IMG/VR virus record: IMGVR_UViG_3300029171_000010
Span: 1-53,919 of that record
DNA length: 53,919 bases
DNA from: a virus
Lineage: Duplodnaviria > Caudoviricetes
Direction: 5' to 3' (one strand)
In this document: piece after piece, positions 11,210 to 52,344 of the stretch
Layout: each line of letters starts with the position of its first letter
How positions within the stretch are numbered: the first letter of the stretch is position 1
Position numbers and translations under genes: made by a program
The notes under the pieces: model-generated
Told to the model about the DNA's origin: nothing
Seen by the model: the letters and a program-made list of their open reading frames with translations, nothing else
Databases searched by the model: none

Positions 11210-12123
11210 GTATTGCACTCGCTGAACTCCTCGAAGCCAAAGCGTATACCAGAGACGGTACCCAAGAGCAGTATGAACACCGCGCCAAAGTAGCGCTCCG
11301 CACGATTGGTAATATCCCCATTACCAGCATCACCAGCGCAACCATTGCCGCCATGGATCAAACCAACCGCAAAACGTTGGCCGCCGAAACGTGCGAGCAT
11401 GTGTTGACGTTGCTCTACACGATGTTTGATCGCCTGATTGCGCTTGACGTGCTCACCAAGAATCCCGTCGCCGTGTATCGTAAGCTCATCCCCAGCCGCG
11501 CACGCGGTGGCAGGGCTGCCCGCGAGCCCGTGGTACTCACGCCTGCCCAAGTACGCACTTTGTTGCGTGCCATTGACGGCGAATACCTCGCGCCGTTCTT
11601 GACCTGGCTGTGCGTGTTGCCGCTGCGCGTCTCGGAATTACGCGGACTGACGCGTGACAACGTGCATGTCACCAAGCGCATGATTACGATCAGCGAGCAA
11701 CGCACGCACCGCGATCCGCACCAGCCAGCCCCGCCCAAGAGCAAGGAAAGCATGCGCGATCTGCCGATTACCCACGATCTTATTCGTTGTATGCCGAATC
11801 AGCGCTCGCATCTCAACCTGGTGTTTCCCAACACGGTTGGTAATCCCGTCTATGATGAGTCATTGCGCGATTGTTTGCGACGGGCCCATCTTGTTGCCGA
11901 TCTGCCAGTATTCCGCATCCACGATTTGCGGCATACGGCAGCAAGCAATATTGTGAATCTCGGCTGTCCGAAGGAGTATATCCGTGCGTTGCTTGGCCAT
12001 GCGCCGCGTGATGTGACGGATCGTTATGTGACGGTAGACATGGAGGTGCTCAGGCCGTATGTTGAGGCGTGGAGCGCGGTGGTATTTGGGAGTGGTGCGA
12101 ATGTTATCAAGATGCAGGCTTGA
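11014..12123 (+). CDS. int: Tyrosine integrase
   Basis: LRVSELRGL, PKS, HDLRHT, LLGH, DRY catalytic motifs; RARGSG N-terminus. Confidence 0.95.
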   Translation: MAKKPKPRRARGSGYVTYNKKRGTYKAVYAGKSKSFSTASDAESWRAEQHRIASAPPPRFADQTLSIALAELLEAKAYTRDGTQEQYEHRAKVALRTIGNIPITSITSATIAAMDQTNRKTLAAETCEHVLTLLYTMFDRLIALDVLTKNPVAVYRKLIPSRARGGRAAREPVVLTPAQVRTLLRAIDGEYLAPFLTWLCVLPLRVSELRGLTRDNVHVTKRMITISEQRTHRDPHQPAPPKSKESMRDLPITHDLIRCMPNQRSHLNLVFPNTVGNPVYDESLRDCLRRAHLVADLPVFRIHDLRHTAASNIVNLGCPKEYIRALLGHAPRDVTDRYVTVDMEVLRPYVEAWSAVVFGSGANVIKMQA

Positions 12124-12138
12124 CAGGTATGATATACT
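12120..12138 (+). promoter_or_regulatory. Short-spacer promoter-like site
   Basis: TTGACA-ggtatga-TATACT (7-bp spacer). Confidence 0.6.
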
Positions 12139-12169
12139 ATGTATGTCGATATGACTATCAAGGTGGTAT

Positions 12170-12409
12170 ATGCCTAAACCAGAATTAACAGAAGCTAAGG
12201 TGCATCAATTGTTTCTTTCGGCGATTACCAACGCTGGCAGTCAACGGAAGTTTGCAAAGATTCACGGGTTAACGGTTTCGTACATTAACGACATGGCGAA
12301 CAAGCGCAGGCAGTTGTCGGATCGGATTTTGCAATCGTTTGGCGTTGTGCGCGAGGTAACGGTGACGTATCGATTTGTCGATACGTTACAACCCGACTCC
12401 GACGAATAG
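12170..12409 (+). CDS. Cro/XRE-like HTH protein
   Basis: GSQRKFAKIHGLTVSYINDMANKRR. Confidence 0.7.
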   Translation: MPKPELTEAKVHQLFLSAITNAGSQRKFAKIHGLTVSYINDMANKRRQLSDRILQSFGVVREVTVTYRFVDTLQPDSDE

Positions 12410-12419
12410 GGAGACTTAA

Positions 12420-12908
12420 ATGCAATTAGAAGTTGAGGCAGCAGCACAATGGTGGACTGATCGACTGCGTAAGGCACCGGGATTTCAAAATGCTGGTGTG
12501 CGTACGCGAGACGAAATTGAATTATCACTTGCACGCACGATAATACAGAACGAATCATATACGCCACTAAGCGATCAATCCCTCCAAGTGTTCCACGAAA
12601 CACTGGCGCAGGTTATTACGCAACATATTGGATCGAATTGGTATCCCGACGATCCACTGCGCGGCGGCATGTTGTACGGTCGGATACTTTCAGTTGATTA
12701 TGGTGTGTCACCTGAAAGTATTCTTGGTATTGCATTGTCTGTGGCTAATATCAATAATAATCGATTGCCAACAAAGACAGTTATGTGGATCGATCCAGGT
12801 TGTGTATCGGTGCGACAAGGATACGGTGCTGGATTGGTGATAATTTTTAGCAATACCAAGTGTACCAGCACCGATAACAGCAACAAGGTGCCGGATAGTG
12901 CGTCCTAG
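12420..12908 (+). CDS. Hypothetical protein
   Basis: GGAG RBS; AAAQWW...LSVDY...LPTKTVMWI...V.QGYGA. Confidence 0.75.
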   Translation: MQLEVEAAAQWWTDRLRKAPGFQNAGVRTRDEIELSLARTIIQNESYTPLSDQSLQVFHETLAQVITQHIGSNWYPDDPLRGGMLYGRILSVDYGVSPESILGIALSVANINNNRLPTKTVMWIDPGCVSVRQGYGAGLVIIFSNTKCTSTDNSNKVPDSAS

Positions 12909-13040
12909 TGCGCAGCCATCACATTGTGCACAAATGTAGCGGCTCGTGCAGCGCTACGCCAGTATGCGGCATACGGTACCTGCACTAGCTTCAAATAAAC
13001 GATTTCGCGACAGTGTAGCAGCACCGTAACAGCAACGAGG
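12859..13040. repeat. Imperfect ~30-bp direct repeat pair; candidate attP region
   Basis: AGTGTACCAGCACCGATAACAGCAACAAGG (12859) and AGTGTAGCAGCACCG-TAACAGCAACGAGG (13012). Confidence 0.55.
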
Positions 13041-13050
13041 AGGAAACGAT

Positions 13051-13365
13051 ATGGAGCTAGACAATCTTAAACCAGGTGACCATGTGTATTTAATTTACGC
13101 CGAACGGATCGCTACAATTGATCGCATCACGCGGCATGGCCGATTTATTATAGGCAACGAAACGTATAACCCCGATGGTTGGCTGTGTGGGTCGATGTTG
13201 GACAGGATTGTTCCGGCAACTGATCGACACCGTGAAGAGATTGAAAAGCGCCAGATTGCAGCGTACCTTGACAACATGAATTGGCGACAGGTGCATATTG
13301 GTCAGTTACGGCAGATTCAAGGTTTTCTTCATGGTGTGGCAATAAACGAGAAAGAATCGACATGA
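13051..13365 (+). CDS. Hypothetical protein (SH3/KOW-like N-terminus)
   Basis: GAGGAGG RBS; LKPGDHV. Confidence 0.75.
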   Translation: MELDNLKPGDHVYLIYAERIATIDRITRHGRFIIGNETYNPDGWLCGSMLDRIVPATDRHREEIEKRQIAAYLDNMNWRQVHIGQLRQIQGFLHGVAINEKEST

Positions 13366-13646
13366 AACCACGTACCATCCTGATCACCCTAGTCGTTGCC
13401 CTCATCCTGATCGTGCTGGCCGTAAGTACCGCACACGCCAAGACCCCACGCGCAACCGTGGAGATCACCGCGGTCACGGCGATGGATGAGGGTTTGTACC
13501 GCGTCTCGTTGGCAGACGGCGTAGAGCTGCTGGTGTTGCCAACCAGTGTTCGTCGAACACAGCCGCCGGTGGCAGGAATAGCACAACTCAGTCCGCGCAC
13601 GTTGTGGCAGGGGCGGGCATCGTGGAAGGTTAAGGTGATACGATGA
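13362..13646 (+). CDS. Secreted or membrane-anchored hypothetical protein
   Basis: MKPRTILITLVVALILIVLAVSTAHA signal-like N-terminus; ATGA overlaps. Confidence 0.65.
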   Translation: MKPRTILITLVVALILIVLAVSTAHAKTPRATVEITAVTAMDEGLYRVSLADGVELLVLPTSVRRTQPPVAGIAQLSPRTLWQGRASWKVKVIR

Positions 13647-13873
13647 ACACTGAACGCCAACTCAAACAATGGCTATCGCTGAATCAACAAGTAACTAACA
13701 TTCGCCAACACAGCAAACCAGTTGATAAGCGCTCCTATGCACGACGGAAACATGTAATAAATTGCGCGATTCACCAAGAGAAACGCCTCTGGCGTAATCT
13801 GCGCGCGGTGTACAGCGTTGCCGAGTTAGATGCGCTGTACACAGCAGCAACGGGGAGGAAGGTGATGCGATGA
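13643..13873 (+). CDS. Hypothetical protein
   Basis: AAGGTG RBS; ATGA coupling. Confidence 0.65.
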   Translation: MNTERQLKQWLSLNQQVTNIRQHSKPVDKRSYARRKHVINCAIHQEKRLWRNLRAVYSVAELDALYTAATGRKVMR

Positions 13874-14112
13874 AGGAACCAGACTACGGCGAACAATCCT
13901 ATGAAATGTACAAAGCTGTATTTCAAGATAAGCCAACGCGGGAACAGTATGCATTGACATTGCTTGATGCCATCGAAACATTAGACGCGCACGGCGAATT
14001 GTTGACACTCACCAAGTTGCTTGATAGCTGGCATAGCGCCACGCCAGGTGATAGAACACAACCGACATTAGCGGCGATGTTAATCGCCAAAGCAGAGAAA
14101 GTGAGAAAGTAA
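13870..14112 (+). CDS. Hypothetical protein
   Basis: ATGA coupling. Confidence 0.65.
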   Translation: MKEPDYGEQSYEMYKAVFQDKPTREQYALTLLDAIETLDAHGELLTLTKLLDSWHSATPGDRTQPTLAAMLIAKAEKVRK

Positions 14113-14514
14113 ATGGGAACACGGGCAGATTTTTATATTGGACGCGGCGAAAGTGCGGAATGGCTAGGATCGATTGCATGGGATGGCTATCCTAGCGGGA
14201 TTGACAATACTATCAAACAAGCAACCACTGAAGACGAGTATCGCCACGCGGTATCGGCGTTTTTAGCATCTCGCGATGATGCGACCCTGCCGGAGCGTGG
14301 CTGGCCATGGCCGTGGGATGACAGCAACACAACAGATTATAGTTATGCATTTGACGACATGGTGTATGGTACGTGTTTTGGTTATGGTTGGTGGCCCGTC
14401 AACGAAAAGCCAGATGATCGACCTCAAGAACAGAAGGTAATATTTCCGGACATGGCAGATCGAAAAAAAGTTCGTTGGGATCAGGGATCAGGGCTAATAT
14501 TACTACGTGGATAA
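14113..14514 (+). CDS. Hypothetical phage protein
   Basis: MGTRADFYIG...WDGYP...GWPWPW...DYSYAF. Confidence 0.75.
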   Translation: MGTRADFYIGRGESAEWLGSIAWDGYPSGIDNTIKQATTEDEYRHAVSAFLASRDDATLPERGWPWPWDDSNTTDYSYAFDDMVYGTCFGYGWWPVNEKPDDRPQEQKVIFPDMADRKKVRWDQGSGLILLRG

Positions 14515-14605
14515 AATAACACCGGGCGCGATCTGATCATCGCCCCGGCACGGCTCCGAGGAATAGTTCAGAGCGTGCCAATTGTAGCACGCGGAAGGAG
14601 ATCAT

Positions 14606-14785
14606 ATGTTGTCACTAGGAACCGTCGTCACTACGCCAACCGGCGCGAGTGGCGAGATCATCGACGCGTTCACCAACTGGCGAGATCGCGGTGCGTGTGT
14701 CGAGGTGTGGATGGCAGAGATCAGGACAAGTGTCATCTGGCGTGCAGAGGATGTGACGGTAGCAGAGGAGGAAAGCGGCGAATGA
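14606..14785 (+). CDS. 59-aa hypothetical protein, not in ORF track
   Basis: AAGGAG RBS; MLSLGTVVTTPTG...; ATGA overlap with next gene. Confidence 0.65.
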   Translation: MLSLGTVVTTPTGASGEIIDAFTNWRDRGACVEVWMAEIRTSVIWRAEDVTVAEEESGE

Positions 14786-15375
14786 CTCACCACAAACTCC
14801 TCAGTATCATCGCCGTGCCATTACTGGCCGCCCCAAGTGCGTATGGCGTGTATATGTATCTTGAGCCTGAGAGCGGTATCGCAGCAGCGGTGAGCGCGGC
14901 TATCGGCTTCGAGCTTGCTTATATCGGCGTGAACGTGCTGGCACTCCACACGCCAGAGCAACGCCAGTATGCGCAGCGCGTGGCGCTGGCAGCAGTAGCA
15001 ACAGCGGTCATCTTCAACACACTGGCACACTATCAACTGAAAGTACCTGGTGCGTTCACTGGCGCATCACTGTCATGGCTTGCGTTATCACTCTCACTTT
15101 TGACAGCGCTTCCACTGGCAGGACTGGCGTATGCGCTATCAGTGCTGTTGCATCGACTATCAGAGCATGAGAGCAGTATGACACAACGCCAGCGCGATGA
15201 CAGCACCGCACTATCAACCATGCTGTCATCGCCGCCAGTGCAGAACACGGTCAATATCCTGGTTGAGAGTGATAGCAAGAGTAACCGCGTCAAGCAACTG
15301 GCAGCGCAGCACGGCGTGAGCGAGTCAACGATGTGGCGGCGCGTCAAGCGCCAGCCCGAACTACTGGAGGAGTAA
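14782..15375 (+). CDS. Four-TM membrane protein with C-terminal HTH
   Basis: Hydrophobic helices, GFELAYIG; VKQLAAQHGVSESTMWRRV; GAGGAGG RBS. Confidence 0.75.
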   Translation: MTHHKLLSIIAVPLLAAPSAYGVYMYLEPESGIAAAVSAAIGFELAYIGVNVLALHTPEQRQYAQRVALAAVATAVIFNTLAHYQLKVPGAFTGASLSWLALSLSLLTALPLAGLAYALSVLLHRLSEHESSMTQRQRDDSTALSTMLSSPPVQNTVNILVESDSKSNRVKQLAAQHGVSESTMWRRVKRQPELLEE

Positions 15376-15378
15376 ACA

Positions 15379-15603
15379 ATGAACGCAATACAAATGGTTC
15401 ATTCGGTCGTTGTTGTTATATGCGATCAACTGACTGACGATGAGTTGATAGCTTTGAATCTGGTGGCACAACTCGAATCATCGCCTCACGGTCGGATATT
15501 TGATTTTAAAAAAGTAAGCGCTTTGTTCGACGGTAACCATAAAATGCATGACATTACAAGAGATGCATTGAACGAGTATTTTATCAAACGAATGAAGGTT
15601 TAA
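15379..15603 (+). CDS. Hypothetical protein
   Basis: GGAGGAG RBS. Confidence 0.65.
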   Translation: MNAIQMVHSVVVVICDQLTDDELIALNLVAQLESSPHGRIFDFKKVSALFDGNHKMHDITRDALNEYFIKRMKV

Positions 15604-15619
15604 TAAGCGGAGGAGTAAC

Positions 15620-15973
15620 ATGGGAATATTCGAGCAATGGGAAGCGGGCGATGTTACCGATATTGAAGCCGCACGCGTAATCTGGGGTGACCTCTCGGAG
15701 ATCTCCGACCGGTTGAAATCAATCGAGGAAGCCAAAGAGGAAAAGCGCTATCAACTCGGTTGTATCGTGGCAAGAACGGGAACCTTGAAACTGGCAGGCT
15801 TAGGCAAGGCCAGTATCACCAGCCCAAGCGTCACCATTGGCTACGACAAGAAAAAGATCGAATCACTGATCACCGATTTAGCAAGCAGCCATCCTGATAT
15901 TGCCGCGCAATTGTTGCAATGTCGCACCGAAAGCGTACGTAATGGCTCGCTACGTATTGAGAAAGAGAACTAG
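15620..15973 (+). CDS. Hypothetical protein
   Basis: GGAGGAG RBS. Confidence 0.75.
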   Translation: MGIFEQWEAGDVTDIEAARVIWGDLSEISDRLKSIEEAKEEKRYQLGCIVARTGTLKLAGLGKASITSPSVTIGYDKKKIESLITDLASSHPDIAAQLLQCRTESVRNGSLRIEKEN

Positions 15974-15975
15974 CC

Positions 15976-16179
15976 ATGCAACCAAAATCAAAAATCGATT
16001 GCGTGATCGATGGTATTGCCATCATCCGAAAATACCAGCCTAACCCCGATATATCCGCCCAAAACGAAGTCATCTACTGCGGCAAGTACAACAGGGATGA
16101 TATGGAGGAGGGAGATCGTAATCTCATGTATGTCTGGGGCTGGAGAGAAGAACGCGAAAGCTGGCGAATCTATGTATAG
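15976..16179 (+). CDS. Hypothetical protein
   Basis: Operon context. Confidence 0.6.
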   Translation: MQPKSKIDCVIDGIAIIRKYQPNPDISAQNEVIYCGKYNRDDMEEGDRNLMYVWGWREERESWRIYV

Positions 16180-16180
16180 C

Positions 16181-16339
16181 ATGCGGTACCGCGTCTGTTG
16201 GCGAGATGCGTCGGGCGAAGTAAAGCACGGTTTGCCGATGTCGAAAGATGCCGCCGTTGCTCACGCTGCGGCGTTAAATCGAAAATACCCGACTATTTTT
16301 CATTGGATTGAGGAGGTGTCAGATGGGCGTACAGAGTAG
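16181..16339 (+). CDS. Hypothetical protein
   Basis: Fills gap; MRYRVCW... Confidence 0.5.
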   Translation: MRYRVCWRDASGEVKHGLPMSKDAAVAHAAALNRKYPTIFHWIEEVSDGRTE

Positions 16340-16784
16340 TGATCTTGTGAATGGTGTTCCGGTTTCGCCGTGGATGAAGCGGATTAAGGCGATCAAGCGC
16401 AACCAGATAGCATCAATCATCGCGTGGTTTGGGGCGGCCTACACCACGTACCTGTGTGTACTGGCGCTCGAACCAAAAACAGAATGGTTAACGGCACTCG
16501 GCATTGGCATGGTGTTTCAGTTTGTGTTCACGGTTGCGGAGCGCCCGTTTCTCCAGCGCAAGGCCAGTATTTTCACCTATCTCGTGTTGGCGGTTGACGC
16601 AATTATCAATGCAGGCGGTATCTACCCAGCGCTTGCGAACCTCTCCGATACGCCGCCTGTTGAGATGATTGCGTCGGTTGGCATTGATTCAACCGTATCA
16701 AGCGCCGCTCGACTGTTGATAGCACTGGTACTTGGTGTTATCATAGCCCTAGCACCGGAAGCGCTTTGGCGAATGGAGGAATGA
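16323..16784 (+). CDS. Multi-TM membrane protein
   Basis: GGAGGTG RBS; four hydrophobic segments. Confidence 0.75.
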   Translation: MGVQSSDLVNGVPVSPWMKRIKAIKRNQIASIIAWFGAAYTTYLCVLALEPKTEWLTALGIGMVFQFVFTVAERPFLQRKASIFTYLVLAVDAIINAGGIYPALANLSDTPPVEMIASVGIDSTVSSAARLLIALVLGVIIALAPEALWRMEE

Positions 16785-16785
16785 C

Positions 16786-17319
16786 ATGAATTTAGGCGAT
16801 ATGATTACCCTGGCCCTGCTGGCTGGTGGAACCTATGCTCTAGTATGGCCGTGGCTGAAACGGCATGGGTTGATCATGCCGCCAATCTTCAGTAACCTCG
16901 CTACATGGATTGCGAATACGTGGAACCGACTACTCCCTCATCCACCTGAATATTATCGTCAAGTACGCGAGCCAGTTGCATCAAAAAACGAAGCCAATGA
17001 GTCGCCATTTTCCGCGCCTTTGGAAATGGAAACAAAGCCGTTTCCAGCGCTTTCCCAAGCCGTGGAAACGCTCGGAAACAGTAACTTTCATTTCCAGAGC
17101 CTAGAAGCTGCTAACGCGCATGCGGAAACACTATTAGTTGAGCGCCTTGCTGAACTGGTACTCGCTGATAAACTTGACAAGTCGATTGCTATCAAGGTCG
17201 GGTTACGAGCGCCAACTGGACGCGCCTATCAAACAGCCAAAGAACGACTCGAAGCTGCCATGCAAAAACAACAGTATCCGACATTGGTGGCGAGTCGGAC
17301 AAAGGCCGCAACCCGCTAA
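16786..17319 (+). CDS. N-terminally anchored hypothetical protein
   Basis: GGAGG RBS; single TM. Confidence 0.7.
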   Translation: MNLGDMITLALLAGGTYALVWPWLKRHGLIMPPIFSNLATWIANTWNRLLPHPPEYYRQVREPVASKNEANESPFSAPLEMETKPFPALSQAVETLGNSNFHFQSLEAANAHAETLLVERLAELVLADKLDKSIAIKVGLRAPTGRAYQTAKERLEAAMQKQQYPTLVASRTKAATR

Positions 17320-17338
17320 CTAACTCACCCCACCCACC

Positions 17339-17366
17339 ACCCCGATCTATCACGGATCGGGGTTTT
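17339..17366 (+). terminator. Terminator at the convergence of early and late arms
   Basis: accccgatc-tatcacg-gatcggggt followed by ttt. Confidence 0.7.
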
Positions 17367-17367
17367 G

Positions 17368-26236: not shown

Positions 26237-26256
26237 GGTGCAACTCCTTGCGAATC

Positions 26257-26380
26257 AAAAAGGGCGGTGCTCGTGATGAGCACCGCCCTAAACGGGTAGC
26301 GTGAATTGTCAGTATTCCATTGTGATGCTGGCAAGTTCCCGCTACCAGTAATCTACGAGTAGTATAGCACACCTATGCAA
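26257..26380 (-). promoter_or_regulatory. Short-spacer promoter, leader and terminator before the tail operon
   Basis: TTGCAT-8-TATACT; CTGACAATTCACGCTACCC; 12-bp stem plus T-run. Confidence 0.75.
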
Positions 26381-26383
26381 GTG

Positions 26384-26857
26384 CTACCAGAGTTCGCGAA
26401 TGGGTAGCGTAATCCGAAACCCACTATACGGCGTCGCACCCACCGCCAGATCGGTCACAATCCCGCTATCGCTTGGCTTGCGTTCGCCCCATTCCACGGT
26501 AACTTGATTTTGTGTCGCGGTTGGGTTCGCAAGCGCCGTGGGGTAGCCGTTTTGATCAAGGCTAAACCATTTGTCGATAAACGCATCAAGGAGTGTTACT
26601 GCCAGCGTGGATCGGCCTGGCATAGTGTTCTGCCCAAGCGCCTCGACAAATACGAGGATCGTGTACGTACGATCCGTGCGTTTCTTGCTGCCAAAGTGTT
26701 CGCGACTCCAATCGCCCGCTTCTGGCCATGTGAGCGCCATGGGGAGGCGCACACTATCGGCGGTCTGCGGGTATTTGCTGAACTCTGGGGCATACCTTAG
26801 TCCAGAAATTGAACGGTTTACATTCTGAATTAAGTCAATCGTTGTGCTGAGTGTCAT
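26384..26857 (-). CDS. Probable tail terminator / neck protein
   Basis: Size and position before tail tube. Confidence 0.55.
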   Translation of the reverse strand: MTLSTTIDLIQNVNRSISGLRYAPEFSKYPQTADSVRLPMALTWPEAGDWSREHFGSKKRTDRTYTILVFVEALGQNTMPGRSTLAVTLLDAFIDKWFSLDQNGYPTALANPTATQNQVTVEWGERKPSDSGIVTDLAVGATPYSGFRITLPIRELW

Positions 26858-28196
26858 TTAGTTTCCTCCACCACCAGAGCCGTCCGTTTGTCATCACGTC
26901 GGGCAGGTGTCGTTGTACGGCGGCCTGTACCCCTGGTGCATAATAGTCATCGCCGCATACAATGCCGCCATCCACCAGACGCGGCAAGAACGTTATGAGT
27001 TGATCGCTGACGCTCTGTTCATCGTGGGCGGCATCAAGGTGGATAAACGCGAGCGGATCGGTGTTGCGTTCTGCCCAGACCCGCCAGTCGCAGCGCTTTG
27101 GTTCGATATAGAGCAGTCCGAACGATTCGATATTGCGCAAGAACTGCCGAAACACGTCACGCTGCTGCGCAGCCTCAATGGTAGGATGATCAGGCGATTC
27201 GTCGCTGTTGCCTTGCCACGTATCCACCGCGTACAACGTGCGTTCACCAAGGCCATGTGCAATGGCAATCGTTGACACACCCTCCCAGCTTCCAATCTCA
27301 ACACATGCGCCCGTTGGCGGCGCATAGCTGGCAATCTTGGCAAGGATGGTACTGTGTGCGGCGTTCGTCCATCCTTCGTGAAATGTCGGTGCATAGTCGC
27401 TATAGAAATGCCGCACCCATGTCATCGGCTGCTCATAGACGGCATGCGGAAGATCGGTTGCCCAATCAATCGCAAAGTTCTGCCATGCGCGCCCGTATAC
27501 ATCCGATCCGTTCGCAATGCGTTCGGCAATCGTTGCCTCATCGCGGTGTTCAGGGTGATTGAGTTCCTGGTGCAGAAATGATTCAATCTTGGTTTTGACA
27601 TACTCTGGGCCACCAAAGTACGAAAAGTGCCAGCCCGCGTTATGGGCATGCATGATACGCGGAAACCCGCCGCGTTCCTGCCCCGCATAGCGCACCCCAT
27701 CCGCCCCAAGTGCCTGTACATTGGCGTACTGCGTGGCTCGTGTACCAAACCACTGGGCATCGCGGGCAGTGTGGTTGAATGTGTAGTAATGCAAGCGTTG
27801 CACTGCTACGACGATAGCATCGGATGGTAACTGATAGAGTGCTTGCACGAACGCCCGGCGCGGGATTTCGTCGCAATCACTAATCAGAATCATGTCGTCG
27901 TGACTGAGGTGCAGGCTGGCTAACGCATCGGCGATGGCATTGCGCTGCGCAATTTCACGCCGCCATGTCCAGAGCAACCCATCGCCATCAGGAAGATCGG
28001 CATTCCAGATTACCAACTTATGCGCATACGGCTGGAAGCGATCAAAGTTGGCGCGCAAGTGGCTATCCTTCGGCGCGCCTGCATGCGTGCGATTGCCTTC
28101 TACGATAACAAACAGATCGACAATTGGATCAAGATCGGCCATGCGAAGTGCCAGTAGATCGCTTTCTTGGAAGTAGGTTACACAATCAATGATCAC
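26835..28196 (-). CDS. GT17-like glycosyltransferase fused to class I SAM methyltransferase
   Basis: MIIDC..E.DLL.LR, REIAQRN, SDCDEIP, GWHFSYFGG; C-terminal EIGSWEG, IHLDAAH, GGIVCGDDY. Confidence 0.9.
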   Translation of the reverse strand: MIIDCVTYFQESDLLALRMADLDPIVDLFVIVEGNRTHAGAPKDSHLRANFDRFQPYAHKLVIWNADLPDGDGLLWTWRREIAQRNAIADALASLHLSHDDMILISDCDEIPRRAFVQALYQLPSDAIVVAVQRLHYYTFNHTARDAQWFGTRATQYANVQALGADGVRYAGQERGGFPRIMHAHNAGWHFSYFGGPEYVKTKIESFLHQELNHPEHRDEATIAERIANGSDVYGRAWQNFAIDWATDLPHAVYEQPMTWVRHFYSDYAPTFHEGWTNAAHSTILAKIASYAPPTGACVEIGSWEGVSTIAIAHGLGERTLYAVDTWQGNSDESPDHPTIEAAQQRDVFRQFLRNIESFGLLYIEPKRCDWRVWAERNTDPLAFIHLDAAHDEQSVSDQLITFLPRLVDGGIVCGDDYYAPGVQAAVQRHLPDVMTNGRLWWWRKLNDTQHND

Positions 28197-28467
28197 CTGC
28201 TACCTCCAGCGTATAGCTCTGACTTGCACTGTCGCCACTAAAATCGTAATCAGTACATGCAGCACCACTAGAAACCGCATGCGAATATCCGTCTGGCCAG
28301 TAATCTAAACGCACCCCAACCGGCATCGGCTTTTTGCAAAAAATGCAGCACGGATCGTATGCTCTCCATCCGCCTGTGTGTTTGCTGGCGTACTTCAACC
28401 AACGGCCATTATAACGATAGATTTGTTCAGCTAGCGGATCATCAGGGAGTTGATCGCTTTTTTTCAT
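28186..28467 (-). CDS. Hypothetical protein
   Basis: Overlaps neighbours; CIFC. Confidence 0.55.
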   Translation of the reverse strand: MKKSDQLPDDPLAEQIYRYNGRWLKYASKHTGGWRAYDPCCIFCKKPMPVGVRLDYWPDGYSHAVSSGAACTDYDFSGDSASQSYTLEVAGDH

Positions 28468-29660
28468 CCTGGCACCTCGATCACCGCCATGCCATTACAC
28501 GGTCTGACAAATGTTACCACCCAGTCGCGTTCAGCGCAATAGCGCTCCGTCGCCACCCGTACACCGGGGAAGGTTTCGGTATCGTGAATGCAGATCGTAC
28601 CACCTGGCTTTACCAGATGCCCCCAGATTGAGAGTTCAGCGGCGACATGATCTTCGGTATGGATCGTGTCAATCAAGAGCAGGTCGCACGGTAGCGCTTT
28701 CTTTAACACCTTAGTGGTTTGCATATCCGTACTACTGGCCTGTACGAACATCCAAAGCGGATGCCCCGCCGCAACCTGTGCCGATTGCGGATCAATATCC
28801 ACACTCCACACCCGCCCGCCATGACGCTCTACACCTGCGAGGAGTGCCATGGTAGACACACCGGATCGGGTGCCAAGTTCGATAACGTTGCCCGCCGCCT
28901 TGGCAAACAATAGCGGCAAGTGATGCTGAATGTCGCTTTGTGTAGCACATTGCTGCATATAGCGGCGGTAGGTTTCCGTTTCGGGTTGCTTTGCGACGAC
29001 ACGCGCCACACTGCGAATAAACGTTTCGCGATTCTGCTCAAATGATGCGCCGTGATTACGCAGCGCCCCTGCGGTTTGCCCGCCTTTATGCTGCACTGGC
29101 CACGCCGTCTGTACCAGTTTAATCCCTGACTGCAACGCACGCAGACAAAGGTCGTTATCTTCCCAATAGGGATGAGGGTAGTTAACGCTGTCCCATGGGC
29201 CGTAAGGTTGAATGAGTTGATTGTTGCCTTGGATGCCTAGTTGTTCCCACGTTGCCCGCGTCGCCGCAAGGCACCAACCCTCCAAGTACGGCCAATGATC
29301 GCCAAACAGGAATTGCGCGGCAAGGGCAGGGCCATACAGCGCCCCATCCCGCACGTCATGTGCGACGGATTGTAGCCACTTCGGATCGCCTGCAATGTCG
29401 CTGTTCATAAAGATAACAATTTCACCCGTAGCCACGGCATAGCCTTGGTTATTGGCGGCAGCAAATCCGGCGTTGACATCGTTACGCAGATAGATACCGC
29501 TGCGCTCTTCAGTGAACGCTTTGAGCGCTGTAGCGTTCGTGTCGTCACTAGCGTTGTCAATCGTGACAATTTGGATGTCCTGCGGAATAGCGGCAGCGTA
29601 ATCACGAAGTAAAGTATCGGCACCGTTTTTCCATGGGGTAATGATACTAATGGTTGTCAT
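28464..29660 (-). CDS. GT2 glycosyltransferase fused to class I SAM methyltransferase
   Basis: IDNASDD, GFAAANNQG, FMNSD, WEDNDLC; ELGTRSG, LIDTIH, GGTICIHD. Confidence 0.9.
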   Translation of the reverse strand: MTTISIITPWKNGADTLLRDYAAAIPQDIQIVTIDNASDDTNATALKAFTEERSGIYLRNDVNAGFAAANNQGYAVATGEIVIFMNSDIAGDPKWLQSVAHDVRDGALYGPALAAQFLFGDHWPYLEGWCLAATRATWEQLGIQGNNQLIQPYGPWDSVNYPHPYWEDNDLCLRALQSGIKLVQTAWPVQHKGGQTAGALRNHGASFEQNRETFIRSVARVVAKQPETETYRRYMQQCATQSDIQHHLPLLFAKAAGNVIELGTRSGVSTMALLAGVERHGGRVWSVDIDPQSAQVAAGHPLWMFVQASSTDMQTTKVLKKALPCDLLLIDTIHTEDHVAAELSIWGHLVKPGGTICIHDTETFPGVRVATERYCAERDWVVTFVRPCNGMAVIEVPG

Positions 29661-29881
29661 GCTTGCGCCTCCGTTCTCCGCCGTAATTCGTTTTCGAGCG
29701 CGTTTTGTTCGTCAACCCAACGAATGCACAACTCAGTAATAATGTCGTCCGGTAATCCATGTTCAATTGCAAGATTGCGATATTGTTTACACGCGAGCAC
29801 ACGAAACAACATGCCAGGCATAATAGAGGTAAGATCGTTTGTGATCATGTCAGTGTATTGTTGTTTTTGTTCGGCGTTCAC
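29657..29881 (-). CDS. Hypothetical protein
   Basis: GTGA/ATGA coupling. Confidence 0.55.
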   Translation of the reverse strand: MNAEQKQQYTDMITNDLTSIMPGMLFRVLACKQYRNLAIEHGLPDDIITELCIRWVDEQNALENELRRRTEAQA

Positions 29882-31095: not shown

Positions 31096-31275
31096 CTACC
31101 CTCCCGCCCAGGTAATCCCGCGTCGTTGCGTACCACAGCAGCGCGGGTAGCTGCCTGTCCCCCGTCGGGTAAGTGGTACGCAGAAGAAACAAAAAAAGCG
31201 GCGGCAAACCCCGAAGGGCGTACCACCGCTCGATTGAGCAGCGCTCATTACGGATAGTATAGCATAGGATTGCAA
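31096..31275 (-). promoter_or_regulatory. Short-spacer promoter, terminator and structured leader of the GT cassette
   Basis: TTGCAA-8-TATACT; TTCG-loop hairpin plus T7; second 10-bp stem tgcgtaccac/gtggtacgca. Confidence 0.7.
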
Positions 31276-36417: not shown

Positions 36418-38966
36418 GCGTACTCCAATTCTAAGAGGTCGAGTTCTATCATCAGCCGCTCACGCTCCATCTTCATGGCATCAGCCATCTCTATGGAGTC
36501 TGTCTCTGGGCTGTCTATATAAGCGGGCGGAAACTCCGCCGCGTAGATAGCTTTAAGGGCGCTCACGGGCAGTAAGCGTGGTTCTGCGGGGGTTGGGGTA
36601 AGGCTGGCGGCCATCAGTGGCCAGCGGGTTACTTCGTTCGTGTCACCGCGCCGGGTGCGCTTCACCAGATGCGGGGCGCTATCGCTACTCAGTTTCAAAG
36701 CGCCTTGTTTTACCATTTCGTTGATGGCGCTATAGTATTTGTGCGCTTTGTCGAGTTGCCCCTCTAACCAGATGCCCACATCATCACGCATAGCCTTTGT
36801 CCAGGTGCCAATAATCGGCACATCGGCGGTAGCTTCATCCTGTGCGTGGTGGTAGAGCATCGGGCGCTGCGTCCAAGCATCAAGCCAGAAATCAGTAGCT
36901 TTCGTGAAGTAATCACGCATTTGTGAGAGATCGGGGTTATCCGCATCACCAAAGCGCACGGCGTAGGCTCCGATCTTGCCTTCATCCAGCATCTTGACGG
37001 CATCGCCGATCACCACCCGTGGGGTGTCGTCATCATCTGCTTCGTAGCCGTCTTCGGCTCCGTCAAGCTCACTGATCTCCCACTCTACCCGCGCCCATTC
37101 GCTTTTGTCGGAAAGCTGTACGTCGCCGCTGTCAATCGTGTAGTTAATTTGGTAGGTTTCGCCGTCAATGTCCAGTACGGCGTACTCTGCGTAGACGGTA
37201 ATATCGCAATCTTCTTGCGCGGCTTTTTCGTCGCCGATCACCTCACAAATGGCATCACACACCAGATCGCATTGCGTTTGCAGATCAAGCGCCTTGATTT
37301 CAATTGTCAGGGGTTCATTGGCATCTATCGGCTTATCGTCATTCATGGGCGCGCCTGCATCCCTGAGCGCTCCTAATGTGCCGACTGCAAAACTAACGGC
37401 GCGCTTGAGGTGTTGCTCATCACTGGCACTATGGCGACGGCTGTATTTGATTTCATCCATGTCGGCATCCTTTGTGGCGCGTGGGGTTACGGTTTGACCT
37501 TTATTGAGTCGGGCACGCTCTTGCTGGCTTTCTTTGATGAGCGCTCGTGATTCGGCAAGCAGCGCAGCACGCAGTGTCGGATTGCCACGCGCTGCTTGCA
37601 GTTCAGTGTCAATCTGGCGTTGCCGCGCTTGGCGCTGTGCGTGGTTTTGTTCGGCAATGGCGATAGATTGTTGCCGTCGTTCGGTACTGCTTAACTTTTT
37701 TTCAATCGCCGCTTTACGCTTTTCAAGTTTGGCAACTTGTGGGCTGGCGGGTGGCTTTGTTGGTTTTGTTGGCGTTCGGGCGCTTGGTTTGTCAGGCGCG
37801 CTTGGCGGCGCACCCTTTTCCAGTCCCGCCTCTGGGCTGCGCTTGCCCGTCTTAGGATCGACCTTCCAGAGTCCGCCAATACCGCCGGATGGCTTCTTGC
37901 CTGCCCCACCTCCACCACCAGAACCACGCCCGCCGCCCATATTGGCAAACATCGCCCGATCTTGGGCGGATTGCTTAATTTCGTCCATCTTGGTTTCCCT
38001 TGTGGTAATCTCAATCCCGTTGCGCAATTCGCGGGTACGGCGGGTCGTGCGTGGCTTGTTCGTTTCGGCTTCGCGTTCGGCGTCCTTGATCATCTTGTCA
38101 ATGGCGCGCTGACGGGCTTGCGCTTCGCGTTCGAGGCGGGCACTCGCGTCTTGCAGGGCTGCCCGAAAGCCGCCCACGTTGCCCAACTCCAGCGCTGCCA
38201 GGGCGCGCCGTCCTTGATCAGTGGTATCGCCGTTGGCATCCAGTAAACCCAGATCGCGCATGCGCTCGTTCTCGGCTCCACCATTATCGCGACCTTGCTG
38301 TAAGGCGCTTACGTCATCCGGTTCCAGCCCAACACGGCGAGCGGTTTCGCTTGCGCGCTTGGCACGCTCCTCTAGCTTGGCTTGCTGCTTTTCGTCGGGT
38401 GTCGGTTTGTCTTTACCACTCCCACCCCCACCGCCGCCCTTGGGTTTTTCTTCCTCTGGCTTGGCTTCGGCGGGTGTCATCGCGTCCTTGGCACGGGCGG
38501 TAAGTTCCGCTACTCTGCCTGCATCGCCACCACTGGCCGCGTTGTAGGCTTGTCGTCCTGCGGTGTTCAGTACAATCGTGCCGTCTTTGAGCTTATCGGC
38601 CAGCCCTGCGGCAACCAATGCCTCACCTTGCGCCGCGTCGGGCTGCTGCCCCATTGCTAAGGTGTCCATGGCGGCGGCGTTCTCACCTAAGAGCTTGGCG
38701 CGGTTGGCTTGCGCTTCCTGACGGGCGACAGCTTCCTTTTCTTCCGCTGTTGGCTTGGCGCTCTTTGCGCGGCCTTTGCCTTTTTGTTTACCTTTGGCTT
38801 TGTACTTGCCCCAACGTGCCAGCGATGCGAGGCGGGCTACTTCAGAGCGCGTACGCTTGCCAGGGGTGCCGGTATTGGCGGGCGCACTGCCACCGGCAGT
38901 TTGCTTGGCGCGCTCCGCTTCGGCCATGTCGCCATCAGATTTTAGGAAGTGCATATGCATTGGCAA
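36414..38966 (-). CDS. Prohead protease with ~650-aa N-terminal extension
   Basis: C-terminal GAYAVRFG, LYHH, DDVGIWLEG, SSDS, ASLTPTPAEPR; start uncertain. Confidence 0.85.
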   Translation of the reverse strand: MPMHMHFLKSDGDMAEAERAKQTAGGSAPANTGTPGKRTRSEVARLASLARWGKYKAKGKQKGKGRAKSAKPTAEEKEAVARQEAQANRAKLLGENAAAMDTLAMGQQPDAAQGEALVAAGLADKLKDGTIVLNTAGRQAYNAASGGDAGRVAELTARAKDAMTPAEAKPEEEKPKGGGGGGSGKDKPTPDEKQQAKLEERAKRASETARRVGLEPDDVSALQQGRDNGGAENERMRDLGLLDANGDTTDQGRRALAALELGNVGGFRAALQDASARLEREAQARQRAIDKMIKDAEREAETNKPRTTRRTRELRNGIEITTRETKMDEIKQSAQDRAMFANMGGGRGSGGGGGAGKKPSGGIGGLWKVDPKTGKRSPEAGLEKGAPPSAPDKPSARTPTKPTKPPASPQVAKLEKRKAAIEKKLSSTERRQQSIAIAEQNHAQRQARQRQIDTELQAARGNPTLRAALLAESRALIKESQQERARLNKGQTVTPRATKDADMDEIKYSRRHSASDEQHLKRAVSFAVGTLGALRDAGAPMNDDKPIDANEPLTIEIKALDLQTQCDLVCDAICEVIGDEKAAQEDCDITVYAEYAVLDIDGETYQINYTIDSGDVQLSDKSEWARVEWEISELDGAEDGYEADDDDTPRVVIGDAVKMLDEGKIGAYAVRFGDADNPDLSQMRDYFTKATDFWLDAWTQRPMLYHHAQDEATADVPIIGTWTKAMRDDVGIWLEGQLDKAHKYYSAINEMVKQGALKLSSDSAPHLVKRTRRGDTNEVTRWPLMAASLTPTPAEPRLLPVSALKAIYAAEFPPAYIDSPETDSIEMADAMKMERERLMIELDLLELEYA

Positions 38967-39067
38967 AACAAAAGGGCGGTGATCCAGTGGATCACCGCCC
39001 GTAATAGGGTAGCGTAGGTTGTCAGACGGGGCTATCCCCGTTGCGTGTATTCTAGCATATCTGTCAA
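38967..39067 (-). promoter_or_regulatory. Short-spacer promoter, leader and terminator before the protease/capsid operon
   Basis: TTGACA-7-TAGAAT; CTGACAACCTACGCTACCC; 13-bp inverted repeat plus TTTTGTTTT. Confidence 0.75.
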
Positions 39068-44453: not shown

Positions 44454-44654
44454 CTAGTTCCCTAGTCGATCAGCGTACAACACGGGTACACCCTGATCGG
44501 GATACGTGCAAATAAACAATGTCTGCGTAGATCGGCAGGCAGGACACGACGCAGCCGTGTCAAGCGTAGAATAGGTCGGCTGCGTCGCATCAACGATGGC
44601 TCGGTAACGATACCCGCATTGCCCGCACGCAATCACAATCTCATTTTCTAACAT
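44454..44654 (-). CDS. Small Zn-ribbon protein
   Basis: CGQC...CPAC. Confidence 0.55.
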   Translation of the reverse strand: MLENEIVIACGQCGYRYRAIVDATQPTYSTLDTAASCPACRSTQTLFICTYPDQGVPVLYADRLGN

Positions 44655-45912: not shown

Positions 45913-45925
45913 AAACCCGCTCCTT

Positions 45926-49555: not shown

Positions 49556-49562
49556 GCATCAC

Positions 49563-50252
49563 CTATATCGGGTGTCGAAGAATAATTTGTGTCGATCCAC
49601 TGGCGGGTGGTGTTGGATTAGCGCCGCCATCGGCAAACGATCCAGCGACAGTCAGATCGTAGTTGTTACTCCCACTGTCGTCGCCTGCCGTGGCGGCACT
49701 TGCAAGCCGGTAATCTGCCCATAAGTTGCTGGTACGCACCGGCGTGGTTGAGCGCCACTCCGCATCCATTTCGCTATCACTCAGGGCGACACCGCTCCAA
49801 ATACGCGCATACGTAAGCTCACCATTCAAAAATTCGCTATACGCGTTATTAAATAAGGCAATTTCGCCCGACGCACCGTAGGCAGTATTGCGGTTCTTGG
49901 TTTCACTATTCGATGTTTTTGTCAGCGACCCTCCCGCCTCGGTACCGATGTACACTGATCGGCTCGTGTTTGTACGGACATACCCGACGAAATACCATGT
50001 ATCTAGCGTGAGTGCGCCCAACACCACGTTGCTAGCGCTATCGGTTAATTCGAGTGTTACGCCGTCGGCTTGCGTAGAAAAGAAAACCTCACCATCTGCG
50101 TTGTTGCCGTTAAGATAAAACACGGTTGCGAAACTATTGGTATCAACCTTGATCTTGACCCACCCGCACACTGAATGCGTTGCAGCATTCGGAAGATTTG
50201 CCACCGTGCTATACGTGAGCTTATCGGCACTAGCATCACCGCGTACACTCAT
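49563..50252 (-). CDS. LamG / concanavalin A-like domain protein
   Basis: HSVCGWVK, TWYFVG, LNGELTYARIW..ALS. Confidence 0.8.
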   Translation of the reverse strand: MSVRGDASADKLTYSTVANLPNAATHSVCGWVKIKVDTNSFATVFYLNGNNADGEVFFSTQADGVTLELTDSASNVVLGALTLDTWYFVGYVRTNTSRSVYIGTEAGGSLTKTSNSETKNRNTAYGASGEIALFNNAYSEFLNGELTYARIWSGVALSDSEMDAEWRSTTPVRTSNLWADYRLASAATAGDDSGSNNYDLTVAGSFADGGANPTPPASGSTQIILRHPI

Positions 50253-50383
50253 AGCGCTCCCCGACTGGCCGCATACACCACCGCCAACCCTAACATCACT
50301 ATACATCCAGCAATCAGCAGCAGCCCAGCCACGCCGATAGCGAGCCAAAAGATATTGAGATCGGCGTGTTCGGGATGGTTCAT
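50249..50383 (-). CDS. 44-aa TM peptide, holin candidate
   Basis: IFWLAIGVAGLLLIAGCIVMLGLAVVYAA; near lysin; ATGA coupling. Confidence 0.5.
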   Translation of the reverse strand: MNHPEHADLNIFWLAIGVAGLLLIAGCIVMLGLAVVYAASRGAL

Positions 50384-50893
50384 CTATGCACTACCTCGCA
50401 GCGCTGCTACTTCACTGCGCAACCGCCGATTCTCGCGCTCACTCTCATCAAGTGCCAGTTGTAACGCGGTGCGCTTCTGATCGCTCTGTGCTCGCGCCTC
50501 ATTCGATGCAGCAAGCTGCACCTTGAGTTCAGCTACTTCAACTTGCAGGCTTTGGATTTGGGATGCCTGATAGTGTTTATCTTCAATCGCGGCGCGTAGT
50601 TGTTCTTGTGTTGCACTGAGCGCCGTAGACATGTTCACAAGTTCACTATCTTGGCGAGCAGTGATACTGTTGAGCATATCGGCATAGCGCTGCACGTTGC
50701 CAAGTTGCTCACGCGCCGCGCTCAAATCAGCGCGCAGTGTTTCGATAACGCCATCCATCCGCACCAGATTGCGCTGCATCTCCGAGAGCGTCGGCTCTTT
50801 TGGCGGGGGCGGCATATCAGAGCGCGTCAGCCACGGGAACCAATCGAGGATTGAATAAACGGCGGTGTTTTGTCCTGTGGTGTAGTGTGTCAT
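50384..50893 (-). CDS. Coiled-coil protein
   Basis: Heptad pattern; lysis module. Confidence 0.7.
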   Translation of the reverse strand: MTHYTTGQNTAVYSILDWFPWLTRSDMPPPPKEPTLSEMQRNLVRMDGVIETLRADLSAAREQLGNVQRYADMLNSITARQDSELVNMSTALSATQEQLRAAIEDKHYQASQIQSLQVEVAELKVQLAASNEARAQSDQKRTALQLALDESERENRRLRSEVAALRGSA

Positions 50894-51189
50894 GGCTGCG
50901 TACTATCCTCGATTTCTGATTCAAATGGCTGGCGGCGGTAAATGTGTCGTTCTTGCGCTTCCTGGCGCTCATGTAGTTGATCGAGCTGACGAACTAGTCC
51001 ACCAACCAGCGCCGTTAACTCAGTGACTTGGTTCTCTAGTTTATGGATACGTTCGCCAACCCGTTCGTCAATGTCCAGCACGGTTTGCTGCATCACATCG
51101 CGAACAGCAGCAGTAAGATCGGCAAGATGGTGATCGCTGGCAATCGCCCAGCTTTTCGCGATTTGTTCGAGGGTTGGCGCTTTGGTCAT
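50890..51189 (-). CDS. Coiled-coil protein
   Basis: ATGA coupling to lysin. Confidence 0.65.
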   Translation of the reverse strand: MTKAPTLEQIAKSWAIASDHHLADLTAAVRDVMQQTVLDIDERVGERIHKLENQVTELTALVGGLVRQLDQLHERQEAQERHIYRRQPFESEIEDSTQP

Positions 51190-52298
51190 GACACCTTCGC
51201 TATTCTATTTGCCCATGCGGCAATCTTGTCAGCATACATCGGCCCTGGTACTGCCCATGTTCCTTCAAGTCCTTTGAGCGTCGGCGCACTGCCATGCATC
51301 GCCAGTGGCAACGGTCGCCACGTCAGCGCATAATCCACCGCCGCCTGTTGCGCGTTCGTGCGCTCCTCTGGCAGCGTGGCATAGGCGAGGAGCCGCCCCA
51401 GATGCGCGGGGATCGCGTGATGTACCCACGTTGGGAATGATACGCCAAAGCGCCAGACACCCGACGCGGCATCGGGTTGCCAGTGCGTATAGGGCAGTGG
51501 GCGCGGATCGCTCAGTGGGCGGGTATCACCATTCACGCCAATACCTGCGGGGTTGCGCCGTGGGCGCGCTGCCCAGAAACTACTCAGGCCACCGGTTTCG
51601 TGGATCATCTGGGCAATCGCCAGGATCGGATTGAGGCCGAGTGGTACGCATAGTTTGGCATACGTGGTAATGATCAGGATTTTATCTGCGAACGTGTATT
51701 CGCTAGTCGGTAAGAGGTTGACGATGTGGCGAATGTTGATAGGCACTTCACCAAGGATTGGGCTGTCTTCGGTGTACGGGCGGTTCATTGCTTGCTGGAG
51801 CCACTGCTGAATAAGTGGCTTTTGTTTATACGCTACATCGCCGGGGCATGTGCGTCTGTCACAATCGCGGTGGGCATTAATATCCGCCCCGATGCCTGCC
51901 CATTGGTGCAACGCGGCAGCGCATTCAACCAACAGCGTGAGCTGTGCGTTCTGCATTGGGCGGGTGGCGAAATCGCCAACAACCTCGATACCAAACCGCA
52001 AACCGTTACAGCTTGGCGAGTGGGTGCCAGCAATGGACGGCGGGGTCATAACAAAGATACCGTCATGGTTGGTACCGACGGCGAGATACAAGTGTGGGCC
52101 GGTTGTCCATCCAAGCCCTTCATAGGTCGTTTGCATACTGCGCATACTGGCATGGCCACGCCATTGTGATTCGTTGGGTTTGTACGTATTATGGTACGTA
52201 CTCCCAATCACCGGCCACGTCGGGCGCAGCTGGGTTGCAAGCCATGCCCGAAAGGCGGCAACCGTGGGGAAGTGTAAATTGAGATTGACGAACCCCAT
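51186..52298 (-). CDS. Endolysin: amidase_2 plus GH73-like glucosaminidase domain
   Basis: HNT, GPHL, GIEVVG, HRD..TCPG; AQMIHETG, NPAGIG, WA...YA; GGAG RBS before 52298. Confidence 0.88.
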   Translation of the reverse strand: MGFVNLNLHFPTVAAFRAWLATQLRPTWPVIGSTYHNTYKPNESQWRGHASMRSMQTTYEGLGWTTGPHLYLAVGTNHDGIFVMTPPSIAGTHSPSCNGLRFGIEVVGDFATRPMQNAQLTLLVECAAALHQWAGIGADINAHRDCDRRTCPGDVAYKQKPLIQQWLQQAMNRPYTEDSPILGEVPINIRHIVNLLPTSEYTFADKILIITTYAKLCVPLGLNPILAIAQMIHETGGLSSFWAARPRRNPAGIGVNGDTRPLSDPRPLPYTHWQPDAASGVWRFGVSFPTWVHHAIPAHLGRLLAYATLPEERTNAQQAAVDYALTWRPLPLAMHGSAPTLKGLEGTWAVPGPMYADKIAAWANRIAKVS

Positions 52299-52324
52299 GC
52301 AGGCACTCCATAGGTAATGCACTC

Positions 52325-52344
52325 AGTATAGCACAGTGCGTCAA
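52325..52344 (-). promoter_or_regulatory. Short-spacer promoter heading the late arm
   Basis: TTGACG-8-TATACT; back-to-back with early promoter P1. Confidence 0.7.

Follow-up and report, generated by a model that had tools for sequence, protein, structure and literature searches.

Putative late promoters with a -35-like box one helical turn closer to an extended -10 element in a temperate tailed phage and its relatives

Textbook promoter recognition has the -35 and -10 elements held 17 ± 1 bp apart by a rigid RNA polymerase holoenzyme, in whose geometry sigma region 4, docked on the flap tip, cannot reach a box displaced by a turn towards the -10 element. The MotA box of phage T4, centred near -30 and 11-13 bp from the -10 element, has a consensus of its own and is read by MotA. 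The closest described systems are compared here on the basis of excerpts of the cited papers. The protein gp39 of Thermus phage P23-45 rotates the flap tip together with sigma region 4 by about 60 degrees and about 45 Å, and in a superposition the relocated region 4 clashes with DNA at -19 to about -26 (PMC3950348); extended -10 phage promoters stay active under gp39 (PMC3950348, PMC3351154), which also antiterminates at intrinsic terminators and is reported to be without similarity to known proteins (PMC3351154). In the loading complex of lambda Q, sigma region 4 detaches from the flap-tip helix and is bound instead to a -35-like site that abuts a -10-like pause element (PMC9388147), and Pseudomonas AlpA has its binding element at -25 to -20, with terminators starting at +26 and +54 (PMC7969949). 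T4 middle promoters combine a sigma-70 -10 element with an upstream box and are read after remodelling of region 4 (PMC6755090, PMC2988021), while a core-read Z-element at about -24 to -18 can replace the -35 element if the -10 element is strong (Yuzenkova et al. 2011, PMC3173786). Here we describe a 53,919-bp virus record from IMG/VR (IMGVR_UViG_3300029171_000010, Caudoviricetes; its whole length is called the window below) in which five sites place a -35-like hexamer only 7 or 8 bp from an extended -10 element. Compared across related phages, these putative promoters form a class that is conserved, biased to one strand, marked by a start-site signature and coupled to terminators that the polymerase would need to read through.

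The five sites (Table 1) were picked out in an initial annotation, and all are present exactly where it placed them and on the strands it gave, each of the five with a TRTGn motif ahead of the -10 hexamer. As annotated, a -35 element is missing from its normal position: at spacers of 15-19, none of the five sites matches TTGACA at more than 3 of 6 positions. A scan of both strands of the window for the annotated pattern, TTGN3-N7,8-TA[TG]A[CA]T, yields exactly these five sites, the total of TA[TG]A[CA]T hexamers in the window being 33. The shuffled background used 1000 dinucleotide-preserving shuffles of the non-redundant 52,368 bp (1-52368). With TGn required, five sites are observed against 0.15 expected, and none of the 1000 shuffles reaches five; without that requirement the mean is 1.85 and 40 of 1000 shuffles reach five, an excess that is only suggestive. 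Two other readings of the box were tried and rejected, as a -35 element for a -10 element 17 bp downstream (by eye there is none after any TTG box) and as the operator of a dimeric repressor (there is no dyad). [quoted passage not shown]

Because the pattern was chosen after the sites had been seen, the real test lies in relatives. These were gathered from IMG/VR, metagenomes and one genome by capsid-protein alignment, the capsid gene being taken with flanking sequence of at most 10 kb; portal-protein loci were added, and de-duplication left 111 loci (919 kb, window excluded). Stringent extended -10 elements, defined as TGnTAnA[ACT]T, number 143 on the capsid strand and 107 on the opposite strand. 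Ahead of these, TTGACn is found on the capsid strand 10 times at spacer 7 and 3 times at spacer 8, and on the opposite strand not at all at either spacing. The capsid strand has 8 such boxes at spacer 17 and none at spacer 18, the opposite strand 9 and 3, and all remaining spacers within 4-23 combined add 2 and 4, respectively. Since L007 and L008 have identical site sequence, as do L031 and L105, about 11 of the 13 short-spacer sites are distinct. The two peaks differ by exactly 10 bp, so that the description of the spacer as one helical turn short proves exact.

The two spacing classes have their most frequent box (TTGACA) and their most frequent -10 hexamer (TATACT) in common, and in the relatives TGn accompanies each of the 10 TTGACn sites with spacer 7 and about half of the canonical ones. 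The box resembles a -35 element in its length of 6 bp, its asymmetry and its invariant TTG. Across 22 credible sites aligned together, only TTGAc, TG, TATACT and a pyrimidine-purine step are kept, while flanks and spacers vary. That step, a pyrimidine at the sixth and a purine at the seventh nucleotide past the -10 element, occurs at 19 of 23 sites versus 2-8 of 23 at other offsets, and is a known start-site predictor (PMC7876045). As a control, 80 mostly unrelated IMG/VR loci among the exact-consensus matches listed have 7 sites at spacer 7, 1 at spacer 8, 1-7 elsewhere and 20 at 17; there is no second-site peak at 7/8 bp, which makes the enrichment specific to this phage group. The pyrimidine-purine step occurs in 31 of the 80.

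The association with late functions that the initial annotation proposed is borne out by a sharp 7/8-bp peak confined to the capsid strand of the 111 loci and by the genes that follow the sites in the window, which belong to endolysin, head, glycosyltransferase, tail and plus-strand membrane or holin-like operons; the sequence comparisons thus support treating the short-spacer sites as a distinct, conserved class of putative promoters tied to late functions. Promoter 1 sits in a divergent control region and heads the endolysin operon; the gene downstream of it encodes Amidase_2 and glucosaminidase domains. Promoter 2 lies between portal/neck genes and an 850-amino-acid gene followed by the major capsid gene, promoter 3 is downstream of the head-tail adaptor gene and upstream of glycosyltransferase genes, and promoter 4 precedes the tail genes. 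Promoter 5 heads an operon at 12170-17319 that begins with a 79-amino-acid helix-turn-helix (HTH) protein and includes several membrane, holin-like proteins. Promoters 2, 3 and 4 begin 1, 15 and 3 nt past the stop codon of the upstream gene, and the TTGACA box can itself contain that stop codon, TGA, as it does for the integrase in the window (12121-12123) and for the head-tail adaptor in L010 (7666-7668), so these putative promoters are packed tightly against coding sequence.

All four minus-strand sites have counterparts at syntenic positions, between which spacers and flanks differ. Promoter 1 corresponds to TTGAAC-8-TATACT upstream of a 41%-identical endolysin in L142. Counterparts of promoter 2 occur in L002, L004, L006-L009, L016 and the complete-looking phage relative G001:C3, all of them 2.8-3.1 kb ahead of the capsid gene. 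Counterparts of promoter 3 follow the head-tail adaptor gene in L010/G002 (7665), L031 and L105, with the variant TAGACA-7-TATACT in G003, and those of promoter 4 are found in L053/G003 and in G002 (15801). For promoter 5 no counterpart was found in the relatives.

That the sites head operons also holds, with the addition, missed by the initial annotation, that a strong intrinsic terminator separates three of the five from their operons. These terminators (tA, tB and tC) stand between promoter and next gene at three of the four minus-strand sites. tA has 12 pairs, 9 of them GC, and tA and tC are the two strongest terminator-like hairpins in scans of the minus-strand block; tB is unlisted by the terminator scan and was read from sequence and fold. 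The predicted leaders of 60-100 nt fold far better than shuffles, with z from -4.8 to -6.3: -35.6 kcal/mol (z -5.4) for leader 2, -31.7 kcal/mol (z -4.8) for leader 3 and -44.1 kcal/mol (z -6.3) for leader 4. The layout of leader 2 is matched in L002, where a Shine-Dalgarno sequence and ATG come directly after the T-run, and that of leader 4 recurs in L053 and G001:C3. Between the T-run of tB and the glycosyltransferase start codon there are 95 nt with no TAnnnT, and after tC an AAGGAG and the ATG (26236) of the first tail gene follow within 16 nt, leaving no room for a promoter. With no other promoter after tC or tB, or in L002, L053 and G001:C3, these operons would need terminator read-through, and terminators placed directly after three of the five promoters suggest that antitermination is part of the mechanism.

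Taking window and relatives together, a terminator ends within 160 nt downstream of 12 of 36 short-spacer matches and upstream of 0 of 36; for canonical matches the figures are 6 of 52 downstream and 5 of 52 upstream, on a background of 660 terminators per 1.94 Mb, about one per 2.9 kb of strand. Hairpin sequences differ between counterparts, and by eye tA in the window and its equivalent in L002 show a compensatory change of the stem from A-T to C-G. The leader sequences 5' of the hairpins are not conserved between the window and L010 or L031, nor between the window and G001:C3, which makes an RNA antiterminator of the nut or put kind unlikely and disfavours a conserved small-RNA function.

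A 9-mer, ACGCTACCC, was noticed exactly three times in the window (26294-26302, 26402-26410 and 39007-39015, all on the minus strand). All copies are beside promoters 2 and 4, two of them directly on the 5' flank of tA and tC, which are paralogous terminators; if one mismatch is tolerated, the count becomes 23 versus 10.5 expected, and variants recur in leaders of L002, L053 and G003.

The window also has the two early promoters with 17-bp spacers described in the initial annotation; both carry TGn and both are repeated near the other end of the record, at 52387 and 52714. A scan of the window for canonical promoters shows those of the 16-18-bp class to be no more frequent than expected. Canonical early and extended -10 late promoters thus co-occur in one phage, as a switch of the gp39 type requires. 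A minus-strand TTGTAA-17-TACAAT (46-18; copy 52414-52386) overlaps the first early promoter back to back over 18-47, such that the -35 element of each is the reverse complement of the other's -10 element; this minus-strand canonical promoter lies 42 nt upstream of promoter 1.

Table 1. Positions in the window of the putative short-spacer promoters, the predicted leaders and the early promoters
Feature	Coordinates	Strand	Details
Promoter 1, TTGACG-8-TATACT	52325..52344	-	TGTGc in spacer; predicted start A 52318
Promoter 2, TTGACA-7-TAGAAT	39049..39067	-	TATGc in spacer; predicted start A 39042
Promoter 3, TTGCAA-8-TATACT	31256..31275	-	TATGc in spacer; predicted start A 31249
Promoter 4, TTGCAT-8-TATACT	26361..26380	-	TGTGc in spacer; predicted start A 26354
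Promoter 5, TTGACA-7-TATACT	12120..12138	+	TATGa in spacer; predicted start G 12145
Leader 2, 5' hairpin then tA	38964..39042	-	stem 39000-38974, then T-run
Leader 3, small hairpin then tB	31191..31249	-	tB at 31230-31197, then T7
Leader 4, long 5' helix then tC	26253..26354	-	tC at 26289-26261, then T-run
Early promoter, TTGTAT-17-TACAAT	19..47	+	copy 52387-52415
Early promoter, TTGCAT-17-TGaTATACT	346..374	+	copy 52714-52742

Taken together, canonical early promoters, extended -10 late promoters, a displaced box and terminators favour a factor that binds the flap or region 4 and serves both as switch and as antiterminator. The reading we tentatively prefer, at a probability of about 0.4, is that the sites are late extended -10 promoters whose displaced -35 element would be read by a sigma region 4 relocated under such a factor. 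Sigma-A/sigma-70-type extended -10 promoters would then drive the late genes (lysis, head, modification and tail), with transcription predicted to start 7 nt past the -10 hexamer and with a -35-consensus TTGACA one helical turn closer, at about -25 to -20, there being none at the normal place. A small protein binding the beta flap and sigma region 4 (of the P23-45 gp39, T4 AsiA or lambda Q kind) would be made early and would pull region 4 off its normal position, which would silence the canonical early promoters with their 17-bp spacers; region 4, or an HTH resembling it, would come to lie over -19 to -26 and so onto TTGACA. The polymerase so modified would pass the terminators that follow three of the five promoters, such that whole late operons would be transcribed only with the factor; without it these promoters would yield only the 60-100-nt leader RNAs.

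We infer both that such a factor exists and what reads the box. The box lies on the same helix face as a canonical -35 element, exactly 10 bp closer and with an equal tolerance of ±1 bp, and a normal-looking -35 element one turn too close suggests that the phage re-shapes the host RNA polymerase. A more specific form of this reading, possible if doubtful, has an unrecognised small phage or host protein swing region 4 and the flap tip by about one turn towards the -10 element, with the moved region 4 reading an ordinary -35 hexamer at -25 to -20 and the polymerase becoming resistant to terminators, a changed shape that the promoters would have evolved to suit. If true, one factor would shut the 17-bp promoters, activate the 7/8-bp ones and open the terminator gates of every late operon, and the primary sigma factor would have a new geometry of two-element promoter recognition.

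Several observations weigh against relocation of region 4. The conserved late class proposed in the initial annotation stands, whereas its proposal of a phage factor that binds the TTG box or moves sigma region 4 has no candidate tied to it, and the HTH genes at 8872, 9234 and 12170 that it put forward encode only generic HTH proteins. Searches of the plus-strand open reading frames (ORFs) against Pfam and PHROGs found no homologue of gp39, AsiA, MotA, Q, AlpA or a sigma factor, the matches being generic HTH (HTH_17-like), integrase, replication and methylase only, and PDB sequence searches with four HTH proteins returned nothing below E = 0.1. The window's early genes have no homologue in G001:C3 and, one weak HTH match excepted, none in all the fetched loci; as G001:C3 keeps the promoter layout, a conserved phage factor is not evident. 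G001:C3 also has a good box at only one of the four orthologous places, the others showing a degenerate TTCGAC at 6 bp, no box, or a canonical 18-bp promoter instead; the layout of extended -10 element and terminator persists there despite loss of the box, so the box would appear to help without being indispensable. A nearby terminator is missing from two of the window's five sites and from about two thirds of the relatives' matches, and the label "late" comes entirely from gene content and strand. The box may also be read natively by the host polymerase. In the excerpts available on P23-45, gp39-dependent promoters are not described with a -35-like hexamer at -19 to -26. As gp39 itself reportedly lacks similarity to known proteins, the missing family match says little.

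Among the individual proteins considered, the product of ORF 8872-9234 (zinc-ribbon-like plus HTH) gave no homologue and P0122 has no relatives in IMG/VR, while P0121 falls among small MerR/HTH_17/Cox-like proteins in Atlas with scores of at most 0.91, an observation at the level of a lead.

It is rather unlikely, in our estimate, that a separate phage DNA-binding protein reads TTGACA with region 4 uninvolved, as a MotA-like activator or a promoter-loaded antiterminator like Q or AlpA. The box does occupy the position of the AlpA element, with terminators following as at alpB and PA0807, and small excisionase/MerR-like HTH proteins are encoded early (74-328, 8872-9234, 9234-9434 and 10748-11209). 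Yet sites specific to a phage, Q binding elements among them, normally vary from one phage to the next, while here the consensus of the box and its variation equal those of a host -35 element although the capsids are only 36-79% identical. A site of only 6 bp with no repeat or dyad, the lack of any Phage_AlpA or Q family match among the plus-strand ORFs, and early HTH genes that are not conserved in the relatives also speak against a separate protein. Unlikely, too, is that host polymerase alone suffices, with a strong extended -10 element, a TTG box that is auxiliary (contacting the beta-prime zipper or zinc domain) or minor, and timing set by the terminators or a general antiterminator. Extended -10 promoters need no -35 element (PMC3950348), a Z-element at -22 to -18 can replace it given a strong -10 element (PMC3173786), G001:C3 retains extended -10 element and terminator with the box largely gone, and no conserved phage factor was found. 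However, the most conserved part of the box, TTG at -25 to -23, falls outside the Z-element, whose AACCT/AACAT differs from TTGACA; the sharp peak at 7/8 bp, confined to one strand and 10 bp away from its canonical equivalent, argues for a selected contact that depends on geometry; and at the two sites without a terminator, constitutive strong promoters of structural genes would be awkward for a temperate phage.

The units at promoters 2, 3 and 4 could instead be genes for 60-100-nt small RNAs of the 3'-untranslated-region type that share the terminator of the upstream operon, rather than entries to operons, which we regard as improbable. Their predicted transcripts are short and strongly structured, the promoters sit in the 3' untranslated tail of the upstream gene, and there is a fourth, box-less unit of extended -10 element and terminator antisense to early genes (1542-1487, minus strand); against this, the leaders are unconserved at orthologous sites, the G003 counterpart of promoter 3 has no terminator and runs directly into a conserved glycosyltransferase leader, the tail and glycosyltransferase operons have no other promoter, promoters 1 and 5 and many relatives' sites run directly into genes, and there is no Rfam match. 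That the TTG boxes lie beside extended -10 elements by chance is hardly credible: random IMG/VR contigs do contain many exact consensus matches, and the window count without TGn is reached by some shuffles, but this reading is refuted by the shuffles with TGn, by the independent sharp peak in relatives, together with its syntenic conservation, and by the unrelated control loci, which among the matches listed have no second-site peak.

The plus-strand genes of the window (1-17319) include a primase-like gene, a VapE-like helicase, an MT-A70 methylase, small HTH proteins, an excisionase-like gene and a tyrosine integrase, and the presence of the integrase makes the phage temperate. The minus-strand genes (52322 down to 17368) comprise endolysin, fibre-like proteins, small and large terminase and portal, followed by major capsid, head-tail adaptor, glycosyltransferases and tail proteins. 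At 26835-31095 (minus strand) the tail genes are separated from the head-tail adaptor by two glycosyltransferase-like genes and one methyltransferase-like gene, a block with its own short-spacer promoter that is kept in G001:C3, G002 and G003 at 42-79% identity. BTG is an anti-proliferative domain known from eukaryotes and unexpected in a phage. A 162-amino-acid ORF at 12420-12908 (plus strand) matches Pfam BTG (E 4.6e-14; 52.5 bits versus a cut-off of 23) and also a PHROG of unknown function. ORF 786-1481 contains periodic repeats of 9/12 nt at 1264-1452 (CTGCTGATG-like, 14 copies), which encode a low-complexity tail rich in Ala, Tyr and Asp. Searches of the window for RNA families and tRNAs found none.

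The ends of the record are diverged direct copies of each other (1 to about 1800 versus 52369-53919; 90-96% identity, with indels), so that the unit genome is about 52.4 kb; they look like an assembly joining two strain variants over a circular or permuted junction rather than a true terminal repeat. The -10 element at 1534-1539 differs between the copies, being TAGAAT in one and TATACT in the other. It belongs to the box-less unit at 1542-1487 (minus strand; copy 53466-53411), in which an extended -10 element, TGgTAGAAT, is followed about 25 nt on by a GC-rich hairpin and a T-run; the unit is antisense to the junction of the early ORFs 786-1481 and 1530-1931 and could give rise to a small antisense RNA about 50 nt long.

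No close cultured relative was found: a 20-kb megablast query had no match among GenBank phages, and tblastn with the capsid protein gave identities of at most 32%. The only genome match is G001:C3, a contig of 53,288 bp and 63.6% GC that contains the loci L135-L137 and lies in a 700-kb "Candidatus Saccharibacteria" metagenome-assembled genome. That assembly is otherwise AT-rich, as the other pattern matches in it appear to be, so G001:C3 is probably a phage contig placed in the wrong bin. The short-spacer pattern is not in excess there (22 matches versus 16 in the control). In Atlas, the endolysin has structure neighbours that include mostly-Chloroflexota clusters, making Chloroflexota a lead as host; the runs listed for the window sequence are four DNA runs of one aquatic study, with no RNA run among them.

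If these promoters work as proposed, a second spacing, as sharp as the canonical one and exactly one turn shorter, serves a single temporal class of genes throughout a phage group. To our knowledge, the evidence for relocation of region 4 has so far come from structures of gp39 and Q complexes alone, and the short-spacer sites would offer a handle on it at the level of sequence. Late promoters and operon boundaries of uncultured phages can be searched for by a simple rule: a box at 7/8 bp, TGn, a -10 element and often a terminator. Whatever reads the box, if found, would be a new factor that remodels RNA polymerase and could become a compact orthogonal switch for synthetic biology.

The likeness to described systems is partial in each case. 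As in P23-45, according to the excerpts cited, early (there also host) promoters are of the -10/-35 type, while those that the phage uses later have an extended -10 and lack a normal -35 element; unlike P23-45, this phage is temperate, and no gp39-like protein was recognised in it. With lambda PR'/Q and Pseudomonas AlpA the sites share the order of promoter, short leader, intrinsic terminator and genes, as well as a conserved, putatively cis-acting element within the spacer. The Q and AlpA promoters, however, retain a canonical -35 element, missing here, and the site of the factor is a distinct sequence; region 4 is repositioned by Q in a paused elongation complex and not at initiation; and those systems have one or two promoters each, against at least five here, with no homologue found. 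T4 middle promoters likewise pair a -10 element with an upstream box at a non-canonical distance, whereas the box here is the -35 consensus at 7-8 bp and there is no match to MotA or AsiA. The Z-element, as excerpted a loose AACCT/AACAT at -22 to -18, differs from a hexamer that equals the -35 consensus with an invariant TTG at -25 to -23. A literature search covering open-access full text found no such promoter class described. Because the defining -35 hexamer at 7-8 bp is missing from the known systems and no protein homologues were found, the class is filed under none of them. The observation is well supported, and it would appear that the sites belong with the phage temporal promoter classes that depend on a remodelled sigma factor.

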